This document shows positions 7,642 through 43,172 of a stretch of DNA of 64,000 nt, piece by piece. Source of the stretch: an uncultured Acidobacteriota bacterium. Its GTDB lineage: Bacteria; Acidobacteriota; UBA6911. The position numbers and the translations under genes were made by a program. The notes beneath the pieces are model-generated. The model searched no databases, was not told the DNA's origin, and saw only the letters and a list, made by a program, of their open reading frames with translations. The stretch's first letter is position 1; each line of letters starts with the position of its first letter. Location: positions 1-64,000 of the forward strand of contig CAWJKZ010000023.1 in the NCBI GenBank assembly GCA_963843575.1, in the 5' to 3' direction.

Positions 7642-8814
7642 CTAGCAGCTAGAGTTGACCCTCCCCTTTTGGTAGGCAGCGATCGCTTTGTGTGCGGCAG
7701 GCGTCCCGATCGACTGGAGAGCCTGCATGGCCGCAACCCCGATACTCTCAAGTCCACCACCATAACAAAACTCTTCTTTGTGGCTGACGTGGATGCAGGC
7801 GAGGCACCAAGGAGTTTCGTCATCACTGGAAAGGCTCGAGGCGAGAAACGGAAGCGCTCGGTCGTCTCCAAGACGGCCGAGGACCGTAATGAGTGCGTGC
7901 TGCATTCGGGGAGTGAGCGGCCCGTTGCTGGCCGAAAGGAGCTGAGGGAGTGCCTTGTTGCCGAATGCCTTGAGGCCGTCGCAGGCGTAATAGCGAACGT
8001 AATCCGACTCGTCGTCGAGCGCCCGGAGGAACGTGGGAATGTCCGCTGGATCCTGATGGTGTTTGAGTCCTCGCAGCGCTGCAGCGCGCTCGAAATAGCG
8101 CTCCGAGACGACGAATCGCCTAAACAGGTCCTGAGCTGGCCCCGGCTGCGGGAGTTCTGACAGCGCCCAAAGTGCATGCGGACGGCAGGGGTAGCTCTCG
8201 TCCTGCACCGCTCGAAGCAGCGCCTCCTCAGCTTCCGGTGCGGTCATCTGCCCCAAAGTCAGTAAGGCGAGGCGGCAGACTTCGTGATTGGGATGCGACA
8301 ACGCTTTGACCAACGCCGCCCTCGCACTCGGATGATCGAGCTTCTCCAGGTGTCGTACCCCTTCGAGTTGGCGCTCCGGAACCGGATCGTCCAGGAATGC
8401 TATCGCCGCTCGCACGACGGGAGGCACATCGCTCTTCCTCGTTCGAGCAGCTCCTACTTCCACGAGGAGCTTCTCCCAGCAATGTTGCTTCGTGAAGTCG
8501 ACGCGCTGGATAGCGGCCAGGCGCGGATGGAGCCTTGCGTCTTCAAGGAGGATGGGCAGCACGGGAGTCGAACAACTTAACGCGTGGGCCCATTCATAGG
8601 TCACATACTGCGACTCCATCGACGCACGGGTGACGACGAGGATCAATACATCACAGGCATCCACGGCCGCGTCGATCCCCGATGCCCACTCGGTCCCGGC
8701 ATCGAGCCTCGAGGTATCCTTCCAGACCCGAAATCCTCCCGCAAGGAGCCGGTTTTCGAGTTCCATCGTAAATGCGGCGTCCTGGCGAGCGTACGAAATG
8801 AAAATGTGTCCCAT
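7642..8814 (-). CDS. TIR domain + HEAT/PBS-lyase repeat protein
   Basis: GAGGAG RBS before ATG 8814; HIFISYARQD...VWKD...SMESQYVTYEW (TIR_2 with Glu) followed by HEAT repeats (LRALDDESDYVRYYACDGL, ALITVLGRLGDDRALPFL). Confidence 0.88.
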   Translation of the reverse strand: MGHIFISYARQDAAFTMELENRLLAGGFRVWKDTSRLDAGTEWASGIDAAVDACDVLILVVTRASMESQYVTYEWAHALSCSTPVLPILLEDARLHPRLAAIQRVDFTKQHCWEKLLVEVGAARTRKSDVPPVVRAAIAFLDDPVPERQLEGVRHLEKLDHPSARAALVKALSHPNHEVCRLALLTLGQMTAPEAEEALLRAVQDESYPCRPHALWALSELPQPGPAQDLFRRFVVSERYFERAAALRGLKHHQDPADIPTFLRALDDESDYVRYYACDGLKAFGNKALPQLLSASNGPLTPRMQHALITVLGRLGDDRALPFLASSLSSDDETPWCLACIHVSHKEEFCYGGGLESIGVAAMQALQSIGTPAAHKAIAAYQKGRVNSSC

Positions 8815-9596
8815 GAAATTGACTCCTCGGGCAGAAAATCGAAGAGAGGTATTCCGGAAGGTAATCTTGCTTCTCGTACTCTCGAACCTCCTTGATCTTC
8901 CGGTTCGCCGCATTGGCCGCGAAGACTCTCTTCACCCCGGCCGCTTGGGGCCAGGTCTGCTTCATGTTCCTACAATGCCTGTTTGAAGCGCCAGCAAGTC
9001 GTTAAGCGTCTGGACGCGGGCGGGGTGGGGTACGACCGACGATGTGCACGAGCGGCTGGAGAAGTTCCCATCGCTTCGATGGCGGCCGATTTGGGGACGG
9101 ACATCAGACGACTGCGTCGTTTTCGCCCCTTAGGTGACTTTGTGTTGCCGGCCGTGGACGACATCGCATTGCGCCCAGAAGATGTCCTTCACCCACCCAG
9201 GCGAGCCTCGGAGGCGCAGAAACAAGCTGGTGCATCGCCCAATCACACCAATCGATTCTATCCCTCTGGCCTTGAAAAGGTCGATGAGAATCCCTCCTCG
9301 TCCCGGAACTGATGCGCGACCTGGCGTCTCGGGGTGCCGCGCCCCCGCTTTGAGAATCTTCGAGCCTTGGAGGTCAAAAACCAACCTCAAAGAAGGTCTC
9401 CAAGAATCTCGCCGTGCTCCGGCATATCCACGATGCCTTCAGGCGTACTCCGTGTGATGCGCAGTCATCTGTGACGTCCTGTATAAACGTGTGCTGCCGA
9501 ATCCTGGACGGCCCAGGACGACAGCTTACTGAAGATGCGCGGCCGTCGGCCGCGCAGGCACCAACTGGCGCAGTACCGCCCACAAGACCGCGAGCG

Positions 9597-25785: not shown

Positions 25786-26500
25786 TCATTGAACGGGCTG
25801 CGGGGACAGCACCCGTTCGAACACCTGTTTGGCGAACTTAATGTTGTCCGAGCCCTTGGCCTCGATTGCGTAGTATCCCCTATAACCCATGTCATGGCAG
25901 ACACGGATCATTCGTTCGAACAGTTCCAGATTAGGCTGTTCTTTGTACGACATACCCTTGGCAAAAGGGAGGAGACTTTTCAGATAGGCGAGGTTGTCGA
26001 AAACCGATGGTTCGCGCCACCGCCAGTCGATATAGGATCCGAAATAGAGACTGTCGATTTGCCGAATTAGTCCAATCATCCACTCGGCGTCGTCAGAGAG
26101 CCCACCGTGGTTTTCAATCACCACGCTGACTTTGGCGGGCACGGCATACTCCAGAAGCCGACCATAGGTTTCCACCGCCCGATCGAGGGCATCCCGCTTG
26201 GATATGCCCTCTGATCCCCGGCAATTCGTCCGGATGGAATGGCAGCCAAGAAACTGGGCGATGTCAATCCACTTCCGATGATTTGCGACGAACTGTTCCC
26301 TCTCTTTGCTGGAAGTCTCTACAGGATCACCTTCGTCATCCACCATCAGGACGAGCATGCGGACGTCGTACTTTGCCGCATTGTCCTTAAGCTTTCTGAG
26401 ATATCCGTAGGTTGGAACCTCAAACAGGGTGTTCACGAATTCAATCGCGCCTATGCCGAACTCCTCGCGCGCAATCCTGGGGAAGTCCAGGTTGGTGAAC
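25786..26500 (-). pseudogene. Sugar-phosphate isomerase/epimerase (AP_endonuc_2 TIM barrel), 5'-truncated
   Basis: FTNLDFPRIAREEFGIGAIEFVN..., LGCHSIRTN, IENHGG and GYYAIE; the usual N-terminus is absent. Confidence 0.7.
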
Positions 26501-29061: not shown

Positions 29062-30154
29062 ATGGCGCATATGACACGCCGTTCATGGATCAAGAGTAAT
29101 GTAGCTGTTGCCGGTGCCGTCAGCGCGGCTTCATCTCTACCCAGGAGCGTTCTGGCAACGCAGCAGGGCAAAATCATATTGTCACACGTCCTGAGTCTGA
29201 ATGAACCTGAACGCTGGAAACTCTGCCTGCAGATGGGTGTCAAACATGTCGTTTCCACTCCCTCGCTGAGTGGCATCGGTCCCGATCAATATGAAGCTGC
29301 GATGAGAAAACATAAAGACGCATGGGCCGAGGCGGGATTCACCGTTGCCGTCTATGAAACCATGACGCCGGTTCCCGCCGATAACATAAGGCGAGGCTCG
29401 GCTGGCCGGGATCAGGAACTCAGAAACTGGATTGCAGTCGTTGAAGCCATGGGTAAGGTCGGCATTCCGGTGCTATGTTACAACCTGGGTCAAGGAGGAA
29501 AGCGAACAAGTAACAAAGTCGTCTTGCGTGGCGGAGCCGTCACAACCGAGCATAATTATGAGGAATCCAAGAAACTCCCTCCTTCAAAGGAGATATACAC
29601 TGAGGACCAGCTGTGGGAAGCCCTGACGTGGCTGATAGAACGCATTATTCCGGTATGTGAAAAAGCAAATGTCAAAATGGGGTATCATCCTAACGATCCC
29701 ACCGTGTCTCCCATATCTCGGTTCCGCGCAGATTATGATCAGCCCCGCGGCCTATCGCCGTTTGTTCTCGATTGCGGACAGTCCTTACAACGGTGTCTCA
29801 TTCTGCCAGGGGAACTTCAGATCGATGAAGTACGCCCCGGGCGAAAGCATATATTCGGTGGCCACGGAATTCGCCGAGAGACGCAAGATTCAATTCGTTC
29901 ACTTCCGTGATGTCGAAGGTACGGCCGAGACTCGCTACCACGAGACATTCCATGACAATGGCCCGACAGATATGGCCAGGATGCTCCAATGCTACAGCAG
30001 AGGCGGATTCGTCGGCCCCTTGCGTACCGACCATGCACCGGCCATGGAGGGCGAGGACTCGCAGGCAAGACCGGGCTATGCAATGCTGGGACATGTTTTC
30101 GCCATCGGGTATACGATAGGTTTGATGCAGGCATTGAATATAGCATATGAGTAG
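29062..30154 (+). CDS. uxuA: Mannonate dehydratase (UxuA)-family protein with Tat-like signal, frameshift near 29710
   Basis: MTRRSWIK twin-Arg leader; LCYN, YHPNDP, NGVSFCQG, VHFRDV, ETFHDNG.TDM, LRTDHAP and FAIGY motifs split over two frames. Confidence 0.8.
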
Positions 30155-39240: not shown

Positions 39241-40863
39241 CTATTTTGCTGCCGCCAGCGCGACATCGCCCTGGGTCTTGGCCGGAGTGAATATCCCGAT
39301 CACCCCGCGAAGCCCGACGGTCATCACGATGTTTCCGAAGAACGAGAGGAAACCGACGAGCAGGAGGCAACCCGACAGCCCGGCGAGGATCATGTAGACG
39401 TTGAACTCGCCGTTGACGTAAAGCGATCGTCGGAGCATCCCGTTCAGCCCGGCCATGCCCATGAACGCGCCCATCCCTATGCCGCCGACAAGATGCGACC
39501 AGAAGTGAAATGTCGCGAGTTTCTGGCTGTAGAGCTTGGCATTGTTGGTCAGGATCGGGAAAAGCACATAGAAAGCCGAGTACAGGGTCATCGTCAAACC
39601 GACCAGCACGGCCACGTGGACGTGGGGTCCGACGATCCACTGGGTGTTGTGGAGGATGCGATTCAATCCTACGTCCGCCTGCATAATGCCGGCCGGAACG
39701 GCGAGGGCGAATCCGAGGAGGCCGCCGAGGAGAAAGCGCAGTTCGTTCGTCATTTTCAAAGGGCGGGCGCTCCAGAGCGTCGCCAGGGTGATGAAGAAGG
39801 CGAGCCCCTGGGTGATCAGTTCGAATGCCGTGACCATCTCGCCCGACACCACCTTGAGAATCGCCGGCTGGGCCTGATCCGAAAGGAGGTGATGCGACCA
39901 GACGGTCCAGGACACGACCATTTCGACGAAAAGAGCCGCGCGTGCGATATTCTGCATGAAGAGATTCTTGCCGGTGATCATGGTGGCGAGCAGATACCAC
40001 GCACCGGCGACGAAGATCAGCACCAGCCCGTCGGCGATCAGGTCAAGACCCCACCAGAACCAGTTCTTGTAGAGCAGGGCGTCGACGGCCGTCCGGCGCA
40101 GGTCGTAACCGAGAAGGGATCCGATCATGTAGACGAGTATCAGGACTCCGGTGAACAGGATGATGCCCGAATTGAGGGCCATGTCCACCGTGCCCCGGGC
40201 GATGGCGGCGGCGGGAAGCGGCACGAGGTGTTCCTTCTTTTGTTTCGCAAAGAGGTTTGTCAATCCCGTCCATCCGATCGCCGAGGCGAGGAGGCTGCCC
40301 GACGGCTGCTTTTCGAATCCTGCGGGCGTGTAAGCGATCGTCGCGAAGACGTTGATGATGAAAAACACCGTGCCGACCATCACCAGCGCGATGCCCACGA
40401 TGAATATCGTCCCACCCCAGACGCTGAATTGGCTGAAATCGGCGGGCAACGGCCAGTAGAGCGTGTAGAGCGGGGCATAGTGTGAAACAAAACCGGCTCC
40501 CCAGAAGACGAAGGTCCCGACGCCGACCAGCGCCATGGTCCAGACCGCGAGCTTGTGGCTCCAGAGCGGTTTCTTCATGAGGAATGGAACCAGGAACAGG
40601 AAGGCCCCGAACACGATCGAATAGGTGGACCCGAAGATTCCGATCAGCGGATGAGCGGTCAGGATAGCGAAGAACTGATTCTTGTCGATGATCGGGATCG
40701 GCTTGATCTCGTAGACCCTCATGATCATGCCCTCGAAAACGGCGAAGCCGTAGTAGATCAGCCCGATCACAACAAACCTGAGAGTGTTCTTCTGCATCGG
40801 CGTCAGGGTGTCCGGTTTAAAGGAGGCCTGTTCGCCTGCGAGCAAGGTATCGATGAATGCCAT
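39241..40863 (-). CDS. Heme-copper oxidoreductase subunit I, B-family-derived, gNOR-like putative nitric oxide reductase
   Basis: Polytopic membrane protein; TAHP, TLYWPL, WSHHL and HNTQWIVGPHVH retained, but helix VI reads FWWGLDLIAD instead of FW..GHP.VY. Confidence 0.85.
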   Translation of the reverse strand: MAFIDTLLAGEQASFKPDTLTPMQKNTLRFVVIGLIYYGFAVFEGMIMRVYEIKPIPIIDKNQFFAILTAHPLIGIFGSTYSIVFGAFLFLVPFLMKKPLWSHKLAVWTMALVGVGTFVFWGAGFVSHYAPLYTLYWPLPADFSQFSVWGGTIFIVGIALVMVGTVFFIINVFATIAYTPAGFEKQPSGSLLASAIGWTGLTNLFAKQKKEHLVPLPAAAIARGTVDMALNSGIILFTGVLILVYMIGSLLGYDLRRTAVDALLYKNWFWWGLDLIADGLVLIFVAGAWYLLATMITGKNLFMQNIARAALFVEMVVSWTVWSHHLLSDQAQPAILKVVSGEMVTAFELITQGLAFFITLATLWSARPLKMTNELRFLLGGLLGFALAVPAGIMQADVGLNRILHNTQWIVGPHVHVAVLVGLTMTLYSAFYVLFPILTNNAKLYSQKLATFHFWSHLVGGIGMGAFMGMAGLNGMLRRSLYVNGEFNVYMILAGLSGCLLLVGFLSFFGNIVMTVGLRGVIGIFTPAKTQGDVALAAAK

Positions 40864-40891
40864 GTTTCTGTCCTCGATCTGAACGTGCGCG

Positions 40892-41455
40892 TCAGTTGGA
40901 TTTCCCGGCTCCCACCACCGTGAATGCATCTTCGACGATCATGTTTGCGCCTCTTGGTCCGGAATACTCCGTCGATCGGATCGAATACGTTCCAGGCTTC
41001 TCGAAGCGCCAGAGGATGTCGTTTCGATGCCCCGGCACGACCTGCAGCTGGAACAGCATGGAGTTGTCTTTGCGGAACAGACCGAAGCCGTAAGTCAGGT
41101 CGTTGGACTTGATGTCGAAAAGAACCAGATCGCCTTCCGTCGCCACCATCTTTTCGGGAGGCAGCTGGAACTCGTGATTTGCGACCGTAATGTCGAACGT
41201 TTTGTCGGGACGATAGTCGCCCCGGTTCAGATCCACTTTGGCCCACGGAATCGTATTGTAAGTAATGATGTGCAGCGACACCCCGAGAACGGCGAGGAAG
41301 AGGACAAACGAATAGAAAACCCAGGGTTTGACGGGGGTCCCTTTCCCGGTTCGGGTTATGTTCAGCGCGAACCAGCTCATCAGCAGGATGATGGCCACGC
41401 AATACAACGTGTAAGCGATGGTCTGTCCATACAGAACGATCTCAGAATCAACCAT
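40892..41455 (-). CDS. Heme-copper oxidoreductase subunit II (cupredoxin fold, CuA ligands lost)
   Basis: GGAGG RBS, two TM helices, SNDLTYGF (vs S.DV.HGF) and STEYSGPRGANM (vs C.EYCG..H..M). Confidence 0.85.
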   Translation of the reverse strand: MVDSEIVLYGQTIAYTLYCVAIILLMSWFALNITRTGKGTPVKPWVFYSFVLFLAVLGVSLHIITYNTIPWAKVDLNRGDYRPDKTFDITVANHEFQLPPEKMVATEGDLVLFDIKSNDLTYGFGLFRKDNSMLFQLQVVPGHRNDILWRFEKPGTYSIRSTEYSGPRGANMIVEDAFTVVGAGKSN

Positions 41456-41478: not shown

Positions 41479-42085
41479 TTATCCTTGTTCCGCTTCTTTG
41501 ATAAAACCAGCTGCCCGGAGTCTCGACTGCAGGAGTTTTCCTGCCCCGGCGAGGTAGGGAGGAGCCGCCGCCTCGAGCGCGGCCGCCATTTGAATAACCC
41601 ATGTGGCGAGATGCTCCTCGATGAAACTCTGCGCGCCTTCCGCCGCCACGGCTGCGTGGCCGGCGTCGCCGCAATTCAGGGCATAGGCTTCCTTCACTTT
41701 CAGATAGGCGATGAAACCGGTCTCGACTGAAATGTGGTCGTCCGCCTCCATCGTCTCGGGGCGATAGGCGAACGCCTGGTAGTACGCCGCAATGCTCGAG
41801 AGGAGCTGTCCGGAATCGACTCCCCCGTGGTACGCAACCTCGCGCGCCGGCACGGGGCCGCCCGGTCCGAACAACGAGTGAAACATCCCCTCCGAAGCCT
41901 CCGCCAGGGCCGCGCCCGCCGCCTGGCGCATAAGTGGGTCTTGCACATCCGTCTTCAACTGCCCGACCCGGTCGCTCCAGGGGCCGGCAGGACATTCGAA
42001 GAGCAGGCTGAGCAGCCGCCATTCCGCTGCGCACCAGCTGGTTGACGGCATCGACGGCCGGCCTCACGAACACCGGTTCGCGCAT
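41479..42085 (-). CDS. TorD/DmsD-family redox-enzyme maturation chaperone (5' end possibly frameshifted)
   Basis: AEWRLLSLLFE.P, LFGPGGPVPAREVAY, YYQAFAY, EADDHISVETGFIAYL and FIEEHLATW. Confidence 0.8.
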
Positions 42086-42126: not shown

Positions 42127-42663
42127 TCACCCAATCTCCCTGCCGGCTCCAAGGAGCGCGAGGTCGTGTGCGGCGGAAAGGCCAGCCGGCCCGGCGCCGA
42201 GAATTGCGACGCGCTCCCCGTTTGCCTTGACGAGGCTGCCGTCCGTGCCCGAACGCAGCAAGGCGGAAAACTCCTCGGGGCCCCCGGCAACCGGCGGGGT
42301 GCAGGACTCAATTCTGCCCAGCACATCCGCGCACGGTTGCGTTTCGGGGCCAAACAACCCGCAGGCGAATCCCTTCAGGGCGCGGATCGCGATCGGCCGG
42401 TCTGTCCCCGTGAAGCTGCCGTCGTCGTCCACGCGCGGGACTTTGCCGCGGCGGCAGGTCACCTCGCACGGGGCGCCGCAAATGCGCCCGCAGATGGACG
42501 CGAAGGGATTCGGCCCGCGCGCAATCAGGTAGGCTTCCTCGAAGCGCCCCTCCGCGATCGCGCGCACATAGCCGCGGGCATCGGTGTGAACTGGGCAGGA
42601 AACCTGGCAGGAGATCAGATCCTGATAGTAGTCCCCGGCCGGGATCGCCGCCCTGATTCTCAT
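42127..42663 (-). pseudogene. GltD/Fer4_20-type Fe-S flavoprotein oxidoreductase, N-terminal fragment
   Basis: CQVSCPVHTDARGYV, NPFASICGRICGAPCEVTCRR, IAIRALK and VAILGAGPAGLSAAHDL, then an abrupt stop inside the Rossmann fold. Confidence 0.85.
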
Positions 42664-43172
42664 TTGTGGCGGCCTCCCGAGCGCCTGTTCCGCGGCACCG
42701 ACAGATCGCACGGCAGCGCGGCAGCATGGGAGCCCTTGGCCATGAAGCACAGGACCCTGCCGTTGACCGCTTTAACGGTGGCCGGCCTTTCCAGGAGATC
42801 GGCCAGGGTCCAGCGGGAGAGGATGCCGCACACCGTCCGATGCAGTTCCAGCGTCGCCTCGTGGAAGCGACAGAATGAGATGTCACGGCATGAAGCGCTG
42901 CAGTAATCGCCGTGGATCTTGCCCTGGCACGATTCGACGATGGCCAGCAGGGTGATCTGGGAAGGAGCCTGATTCATGCGCAGGCCGCCCCGGGCGCCCT
43001 TTCCCGCCTGCAGGATCCCGCTTTTGACGAGATGCCTCATGACCTTGGCCAGGTAGGATGGGGACTCGCCGAGCGCCTCGGCGATCCGTCGTGGCGGCAC
43101 GGCGACGCGCGCATCCATTTTTGAGAGATGGACCAGAGCCCGCAGGGCCGACACCGTGGATTTCGCGATCAT
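42660..43172 (-). CDS. Rrf2-family transcriptional regulator with Cys cluster
   Basis: ALRALVHL, IAEALGESPSYLAKV, GARGGLRM, ITLLAIVE and CQG...C...C.....C.FH. Confidence 0.92.
   Translation of the reverse strand: MIAKSTVSALRALVHLSKMDARVAVPPRRIAEALGESPSYLAKVMRHLVKSGILQAGKGARGGLRMNQAPSQITLLAIVESCQGKIHGDYCSASCRDISFCRFHEATLELHRTVCGILSRWTLADLLERPATVKAVNGRVLCFMAKGSHAAALPCDLSVPRNRRSGGRHK

Follow-up and report, generated by a model that had tools for sequence, protein, structure and literature searches.

Is the enzyme encoded by two adjoining genes of an uncultured acidobacterium a cytochrome c oxidase, as its public names state, or does it reduce something other than oxygen? The genes lie at positions 39241-41455 of a 64,000-nucleotide stretch of DNA (GenBank assembly GCA_963843575.1, contig CAWJKZ010000023.1, positions 1 to 64,000; hereafter the window). 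In public sources these proteins go by 'cytochrome c oxidase subunit 1' or 'cbb3-type cytochrome c oxidase subunit I', which bears out what the original prediction, made from the sequence of the window, expected of automatic annotation. That prediction proposed a nitric oxide (NO) reductase of the gNOR type, probably fed by quinol. The label has consequences: as an annotation, cytochrome c oxidase wrongly suggests aerobic respiration in many anaerobes, and it hides a possible source of the greenhouse gas nitrous oxide (N2O). We find that the gene pair, judged by its sequence features, very probably belongs to the gNOR family of the heme-copper oxidoreductase superfamily. A gNOR member that acts as NO reductase is the best overall explanation, and we consider it probable.

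The region holds exactly two minus-strand genes, and the 28-nucleotide gap between them carries GAGGA. The open frame of subunit I spans 39241-40929 with an upstream ATG at 40929. The ATG at 40863, which follows the GAGGA, is the likelier start, because the resulting protein of 540 amino acids equals the database copy P0003 and fits the homologue lengths of 530-556 amino acids. Residue numbers of subunit I refer to this protein. Subunit I matches Pfam COX1 with 169.8 bits, and subunit II has no Pfam match at E 0.01. NCBIfam gives no family-level name for either subunit, all matches being far under the cut-offs; those of subunit II are to SoxA, CoxB and the NosZ C-terminus.

The active site of subunit I is where the cytochrome c oxidase label fails. 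Helix VI reads KNWFWWGLDLIAD. A family profile built from 8 sequences and searched against PDB sequences pairs the GHP histidine of Thermus ba3 (...fwwtGHPIaY...) with D274 and its tyrosine with D278, and a MAFFT alignment with GHPVVY-bearing relatives gives the identical register for both residues. The motif WWGLD(L/M)(I/V)AD is present in all 120 of the listed close matches, and also in a second cluster at 43-45% identity (P0125, P0159, and P0270). On these alignments, the Asp/Asp helix VI is neither a chance occurrence nor a private change of the window protein. With the helix VI histidine gone and Asp in the place of both partners, formation of the His-Tyr cofactor is impossible, which would exclude canonical four-electron O2 reduction. 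C-type oxidases keep their active-site tyrosine six residues before the HH pair; the residue at this place in subunit I is Ser, not Tyr.

The remaining ligands of a heme-copper enzyme are in place. WSHH and HNTxW...GPHVH each occur in 120/120 listed close matches, and (I/L)(L/M)TAHP occurs in 118/120, the pattern being not found in the other two. H416 is invariant and H414 and H71 are nearly invariant in the alignment, outgroups included. In helix X the HMMER register is off by one residue due to an extra Pro, and MAFFT pairs H-V-H with H-F-H. By alignment, subunit I keeps the low-spin heme ligands H71 and H416 and the high-spin heme ligand H414. The Arg pair R478/R479 is also kept; in ba3, the Arg pair binds the heme propionates. 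Every family-invariant residue is present, and both frames are intact and full-length. Neither subunit has a CxxCH motif, and each has one Cys. The claims of the original prediction for this subunit (heme histidines and HH pair kept, FWWGLDLIAD in helix VI, His-to-Asp at a CuB ligand, and no cross-linking Tyr) are thus upheld by the alignments with ba3 and the GHPVVY relatives and by the invariance among the close matches.

Subunit II was predicted to lack CuA, with Tyr/Ser/Ser in place of its ligands, and we found Tyr/Ser/Ser/Gly at the His/Cys/Cys/His positions. Its profile, a 20-sequence alignment at 58-69% identity to the window protein, matches the CuA domain of Thermus ba3 with E 6e-6 to 1.3e-4. 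The residues at the five ligand positions (Y122, S161, S165, G169, and M172) are all invariant in this alignment. The AlphaFold model (predicted local distance difference test, pLDDT, 82.4) consists of a beta-sandwich and two membrane helices. Among PDB structures, Foldseek ranks ba3 subunit II first (E 4.7e-8), and 2cua_A superposes with a root-mean-square deviation of 3.0 over about 102 columns. Both alignment and model describe subunit II as a membrane-anchored cupredoxin without CuA ligands.

The AlphaFold model of subunit I shows the full heme-copper oxidase helix bundle (pLDDT 82.8, predicted template modelling score 0.86). In the Foldseek and VIA comparisons, it matches solved oxidases with Z scores of 33-36, with A-type enzymes at the top (Z up to 36.2) and cbb3 near 33; the 50 entries listed do not include ba3. 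As modelled, the fold confirms the superfamily and does not pick the family. Fold comparison was rejected as a family test, A-, B-, and C-type oxidases being nearly tied. In the profile search of subunit I against PDB, Thermus ba3 comes first (E 5e-14 to 7e-13), with A-type enzymes at 2e-11 to about 1e-8 and cbb3 at about 1e-9 to 4e-7. By family profile, Thermus ba3 is the nearest solved sequence for both subunits.

An all-against-all search of representatives at E 0.001 returned only 355 proteins. They fall into a tight main cluster with a 75% identical representative and a second full-length cluster at 45% that shares the motif (P0125); identity then drops to 20-31%. Among nine distant full-length proteins that were aligned, five carry GHPxVY (four B-like and one A-like, P0267), two have His/Asn (P0229, 26% identical, and P0256), and one has Arg/Gln. 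A tree was computed with IQ-TREE (LG+C20, quick search) from 25 rows, namely 15 family members (the window and named genomes), P0125, and the nine distant relatives. All 16 Asp/Asp rows form one group, with a Shimodaira-Hasegawa-like approximate likelihood ratio test (SH-aLRT) support of 94, and this group is joined with the Tyr-less His/Asn and Arg/Gln rows (support 99). P0229 and P0256 lie outside the Asp/Asp clade, and the six His/Tyr rows are all on the other side of the tree. The phylogenetic placement that the original prediction called for therefore shows clustering with 0/6 His/Tyr relatives, in a 25-row sample with long-branched outgroups lacking family names. With the His-Tyr cofactor impossible, no CuA, and this separation in the tree, the claim that the enzyme is not a cytochrome c oxidase stands at the level of sequence.

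The Arg/Gln row is P0262, a Logan-derived protein of 462 amino acids at 27-28% identity. In two alignments, Arg takes the place of its helix VI His and Gln that of its Tyr. The protein may represent a further family that lost a CuB histidine, unless it is misaligned.

These features agree with a family that has already been described. In the available part of Murali et al. (PNAS 2024, PMC11214002), gNOR is the first heme-copper family to replace an active-site histidine, by aspartate. The same part gives gNOR a cupredoxin subunit II without the CuA residues, as well as conserved candidate quinol-binding residues, proposes quinol as the donor, presents the NO reductase function as a prediction, and remarks on a skew toward sulfidic habitats. 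For gNOR, the appendix table of PMC8756737, also available in part, gives Asp as the residue at the tyrosine position, records no proton channel, and credits the family to Sievert et al. (2008). In Ca. Methylomirabilis oxyfera, gNOR is the two-gene unit DAMO_1118-1119 (PMC6094997). The counts given are 10 NCBI genomes, 913 IMG metagenome hits, and 156 GTDB genomes (PMC11214002, available part). Within the available part of Dataset S8 of that paper, gNOR is listed in three Acidobacteriota (an Edaphobacter, an Aminicenantales, and the Vicinamibacterales genome Fen-181) and in many Bacteroidales, Ignavibacteria, Persephonella, Sulfurimonas, and Methylomirabilis. Most of these carriers are without nir or nos genes, and several have qNOR. 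The window pair shows the superfamily with its heme ligands, the His-to-Asp replacement, Asp at the tyrosine position, and a cupredoxin without CuA. The original prediction was right to name gNOR as the described Tyr-less family in which Asp replaces a CuB His. The enzyme type is thus already described (2008, 2024), and the window pair is an additional acidobacterial carrier, which leaves knowledge of the gNOR family unchanged.

The family is large and extremely conserved, and no other heme-copper family is described as having lost a CuB histidine. In a scan of one genome per species, at least 546 genomes under many phylum labels carry it at 76-82% identity. The present genome set is about four-fold larger than that behind the 156 GTDB genomes, which fits this number. 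Bacteroidales dominate among the carriers, with Ignavibacteria, Aminicenantes, Acidobacteriota, Vicinamibacterales, Gemmatimonadota, Anaerolineae, Spirochaetota, and others. Dataset S8, which covers an older and smaller release, shows a like distribution for gNOR, led by Bacteroidales and with Ignavibacteria, Aminicenantales, and Vicinamibacterales. The genes range from 34 to 65% in G+C content at about 78-80% protein identity, which points to strong purifying selection on an active protein. Subunit II adjoins subunit I in 76 of the 80 genome loci examined and in 76 of 80 metagenome loci.

The commonest neighbour is a gene of the Rrf2 family directly upstream on the same strand (43/70 loci by Pfam, 71/130 by tblastn). 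These linked regulators keep a pattern of three Cys and one His. They are below every specific NCBIfam cut-off, NsrR included, and six that were tested are nearer to the SUF-regulator, IscR, or RirA models than to NsrR. Among 103 loci with enough flank for tblastn, 13 have two YeeE/YedE sulfur-transporter genes, rhodanese genes, and a gene of 155 amino acids downstream (L009, L012, L013, L018, and L057 were checked by Pfam). Seven have DUF438-hemerythrin-PAS_10 and DUF1858/DUF2249 genes there, with a cupin gene in four (L010, L016, L017, and L020). Hemerythrin/DUF438 and DUF1858 genes belong to nitrosative-stress regulons. At one locus (L034:5309-6349, plus strand), a diheme cytochrome c gene stands directly upstream of subunit II in the usual place of Rrf2, and some members may therefore use a cytochrome c donor.

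An NO-reductase mechanism fed by quinol, predicted for the whole family by analogy, is somewhat favoured for this gene pair. The former CuB site would consist of H324, H325, and D274, with D278 as a second carboxylate and perhaps also a ligand. A site of two His and a carboxylate would be expected to bind a non-heme iron comparable to FeB of cNOR and qNOR. This iron would face the high-spin heme, where 2NO + 2e- + 2H+ -> N2O + H2O could proceed. Electrons would come most simply from membrane quinol, as in cytochrome bo3, because neither CuA nor a cytochrome c entry point is present. Proton uptake is probably not from the cytoplasm, in which case the reaction would conserve little or no energy. 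Expression is probably switched on by an Fe-S Rrf2 regulator. The mechanism draws on the Rrf2 link and on two points in the available part of PMC11214002: a heme facing a non-heme His/carboxylate metal is the cNOR/qNOR design, and myoglobin fitted with a 2-His-1-Glu iron site is reported to show NOR activity (reference 42 therein). The original prediction suggested a search for nir and nos genes elsewhere in the genome, and the answer is partial: NirK and NosZ were not found in this 88%-complete genome, and a NirS-domain match is weak only. NO detoxification rather than denitrification would follow. The apparent lack of nitrite and nitrous oxide reductases in this acidobacterial carrier suggests that the enzyme detoxifies NO and releases N2O.

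A gNOR-family enzyme may have a real substrate other than NO, such as N2O, peroxide, or sulfur-oxygen or sulfur-nitrogen species in sulfidic and anoxic settings, or it may scavenge trace O2 in a non-canonical way. We regard this as possible though unlikely. The predicted NO reduction of gNOR rests on analogy, because no gNOR is reported as purified or assayed. Moreover, a second NOR is not obviously needed in the many carriers, the host genome included, that already have qNOR, yet several organisms carry NORs of several families (PMC11214002, available part). The reported sulfidic bias of gNOR and the YeeE/YedE and rhodanese genes speak for another substrate, as do the lack of nir and nos in most carriers of the available part 2 of Dataset S8 and the NirK and NosZ genes not found in the host genome. 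The NOR-like design of the metal site and the myoglobin precedent argue for NO, and so do the hemerythrin/DUF438 and DUF1858 neighbours at 7/103 loci. The commonest partner, an Fe-S Rrf2 regulator, points the same way since NsrR is of the Rrf2 family, yet the six tested regulators are nearer to other models. A broader form of the idea is that gNOR as such is not an NO reductase, and that its heme/His2Asp2 centre, spread by transfer among anaerobes under at least 10 phylum labels at about 80% identity, performs other chemistry in sulfidic, low-oxygen settings, perhaps on sulfur-nitrogen or sulfur-oxygen species. The YeeE/rhodanese neighbours and the nir-less carriers would fit such chemistry; we judge it rather unlikely. 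If it were true, the acidobacterial gene pair would add another carrier.

It is highly improbable that the pair really encodes a terminal oxygen reductase, the function implied by the automatic names. Pfam COX1 membership, the full oxidase fold, and the kept heme ligands and R478/R479 are what an oxidase would show, but every member examined has Asp for both partners of the His-Tyr cofactor, and no Tyr stands six residues before the HH pair. The enzyme also has no CuA or heme c site to take electrons from cytochrome c, and the family stands apart from all His/Tyr relatives in the tree. It is improbable as well, to a lesser degree, that the pair in the host genome is a decaying passenger, recently transferred, unregulated, among gene fragments, and of no present function. 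The lack of an orthologue in all 40 relatives examined, the adjoining truncated GltD-like and orphan TorD-like genes, the displaced Rrf2 gene, and several neighbouring window genes that match only part of their Pfam models would suit decay. The intact, full-length frames with all family-invariant residues argue against it, as does a codon-position G+C content typical of coding sequence in the host genome. The broken frames elsewhere may be assembly errors; qNOR is itself split over frames. Near-identical contigs from other samples also speak weakly against decay. Soil and sediment DNA runs hold contigs of 151-331 nucleotides with 0-1 mismatches, and a 182-nucleotide contig with 2 mismatches lies on subunit II (41004-41185) in one sediment metatranscriptome run (X16). 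Near-identical strains thus exist elsewhere, and the single contig from an RNA library is a weak hint of transcription, too slight for a claim about transcription or habitat. No sequencing run holds more than 0.15 of the sampled words, and the contigs are mostly from relatives less than 90% alike.

Several observations weigh against a gNOR-type NO reductase. A-type oxidases lead the Foldseek and VIA lists, with Z scores tied within about 3 and the B family not singled out. The outgroups of the tree are few and long-branched and carry no family names. The assignment to gNOR was made by published family features, not by alignment to a named gNOR reference: six Dataset S4 gNOR accessions (e.g. 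CBE68178.1 and OFY63238.1) were not among the clusters examined for 20 proteins, and the named gNOR reference organisms were not among the 80 loci taken from the carriers. The available part of a preprint (10.1101/592808) gives gNOR a His-to-Glu change at a heme ligand, whereas the window family keeps His at all three heme-ligand positions. No report of gNOR purification or assay was found in the literature searched, and gNOR papers since 2023 show no characterization by title or abstract start. At the family level, most loci have no other nitrogen-oxide gene nearby, and the sulfur-transport and rhodanese genes of 13/103 loci belong here too. In the host, the Rrf2 gene lies 1.2 kb upstream instead of next to the pair and shares only 22-26% identity with its gNOR-linked counterparts, and the genome also has qNOR, with a broken frame, at a locus separate from the gNOR pair.

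The host genome has 6.68 Mb in 27 contigs and encodes an A-type oxidase. Its assignment to an acidobacterium, also foreseen in the original prediction, is borne out by RecA: all five organism-named matches among the best 120 are Acidobacteria/Acidobacteriota. An orthologue of the gene pair was found in 0/40 relatives (1 of the same genus, 23 of the same family, and 16 of the same class), seven of which show only 23-28% matches to other oxidase-type genes. In the same-genus genome (81% complete), the flanks are matched at 75-82% DNA identity on other contigs, and there is no DNA match to 39.2-45.5 kb. The region therefore looks like an accessory patch, and the gene pair was probably acquired horizontally. 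The qNOR gene (L003, G000:C10:224649-228233) matches Alcaligenes qNOR 6qq5 with E 1e-59. Its coding sequence is spread over at least three reading frames, through either real breakage of the gene or a frameshift in the assembly. The features of the window locus are collected in Table 1.

Table 1. Positions of the gene pair, its ligand residues, and the upstream genes in the window
Feature	Position	Strand	Basis
Subunit I, heme-copper-type enzyme	39241..40863	minus	540 amino acids; Pfam COX1, 540-amino-acid database copy P0003 100% identical, AlphaFold model
H414 and H416 (GPHVHV), helix X heme ligands	39616..39624	minus	alignment
H324-H325 pair (WSHH), two retained non-heme metal ligands	39889..39894	minus	aligns to ba3 HH pair
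Helix VI motif FWWGLDLIAD	40030..40059	minus	alignments with ba3 GHPIaY and GHPVVY relatives
D278 at cross-link Tyr position	40030-40032	minus	helix VI alignment
D274 at CuB-His position	40042-40044	minus	helix VI alignment
H71 (LTAHP), helix II low-spin heme ligand	40651..40653	minus	alignment
Subunit II	40892..41455	minus	187 amino acids; two membrane helices and cupredoxin domain without CuA ligands
Subunit II residues at CuA ligand positions	40940..41092	minus	residue-by-residue alignment to 2cua/1ehk subunit II
M172 at CuA Met	40940-40942	minus	2cua/1ehk alignment
G169 at second CuA His	40949-40951	minus	2cua/1ehk alignment
S161, S165 at two CuA Cys	40973-40975, 40961-40963	minus	2cua/1ehk alignment
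Y122 at first CuA His	41090-41092	minus	2cua/1ehk alignment
TorD/NarJ-like chaperone open reading frame	41479..42051	minus	Pfam Nitrate_red_del E 1.9e-8; 23 nucleotides upstream of subunit II
Truncated GltD-like Fe-S/FAD fragment	42127..42650	minus	Fer4_20 E 9e-13; between Rrf2 and TorD-like frame
Rrf2-family regulator, candidate NO-/redox-sensing	42660..43172	minus	Pfam Rrf2 E 2e-22

The window Rrf2 protein keeps a Cys-Cys-Cys-His cluster pattern (C91, C98, C101, and H104). The GltD-like frame ends just past its GAGPAG dinucleotide-binding motif; in-frame stops follow, and there is no continuation in any frame. The TorD-like frame was considered as a dedicated gNOR chaperone and rejected: the gene is absent from all 160 other family loci, and its homologues in relatives (G005 and G032) adjoin EB_dh and molybdopterin oxidoreductase genes. 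There is no molybdoenzyme gene within the window. The TorD-like frame is probably a bystander, the orphan of a molybdoenzyme operon. An FNR/Dnr box (TTGAT-N4-ATCAA, up to 2 mismatches) was tried and rejected as a regulatory signal, with 16 matches against 14.7 expected; between 40400 and 43500 no FNR-type box was found except one inside subunit I.

Farther away in the window, the frames at 1919-2536, 25786-26436, and 29657-30154 give partial Pfam matches (DUF1846 129-312 of 333, UxuA 209-351 of 352, and AP_endonuc_2 30-159 of 249) and are either truncated genes or frameshift errors. The frame at 7642-8913 (minus strand) encodes a protein of 423 amino acids with a TIR_2 domain followed by HEAT repeats, possibly a defence or signalling protein.

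Among known systems, Thermus thermophilus ba3 (1EHK, 1XME) shares with the window enzyme the fold, the heme ligands, the HH pair, and a cupredoxin subunit II. What sets it apart is the GHP histidine, the tyrosine cross-linked to it, and a complete CuA site (His, two Cys, His, and Met), of which the window enzyme keeps only the Met (M172). The subunit II of ba3 has one membrane helix, whereas the window model has two. E. coli bo3 is a strong fold match whose cupredoxin subunit II has likewise lost CuA, but it belongs to the A-type O2 reductases, pumps protons, and has the tyrosine as well as three CuB His ligands. The gNOR authors themselves compare gNOR with bo3 for the CuA-less cupredoxin and the quinol electron entry (PMC11214002, available part).

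The established NO reductases cNOR and qNOR (NorBC and NorZ) resemble the window enzyme in a heme that faces a non-heme metal site with a carboxylate and no tyrosine, and qNOR uses quinol. They have three His and a Glu, belong to a C-family branch, and carry a cytochrome c subunit or a fused N-terminal domain; the window enzyme has two His and an Asp (plus a second Asp), a B-family-like sequence, a cupredoxin partner, and no CxxCH. The cNOR-related 'N2O red' family (PMC11214002), common in Bacteroidota, was considered because the carriers of the window family are rich in Bacteroidota. It was set aside since both subunits are closest to ba3 by sequence, subunit I is paired with a cupredoxin, and gNOR is listed for these taxa in Dataset S8. 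The families sNOR, bNOR, eNOR, and nNOR are also Tyr-less derivatives with cupredoxin-type subunits. They keep three active-site histidines, and their subunit II is described as CuA-type; neither is true of the window enzyme. The tyrosine position is Asn in sNOR and bNOR and Gln in eNOR (PMC8756737 table, available part), and NO reduction is shown among these four families only for eNOR and bNOR, according to the available part of PMC11214002.

The comparison with gNOR itself is the closest. In both, Asp stands in for the active-site His and also occupies the tyrosine position; both are two-gene units with a CuA-less cupredoxin and no heme c, and they occur in the same taxa (Bacteroidales, Ignavibacteria, Aminicenantales, Vicinamibacterales, and others). 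The differences concern the surroundings, with Rrf2 set 1.2 kb off in the window and the genes missing from the host's relatives; no difference in the enzyme was detected.

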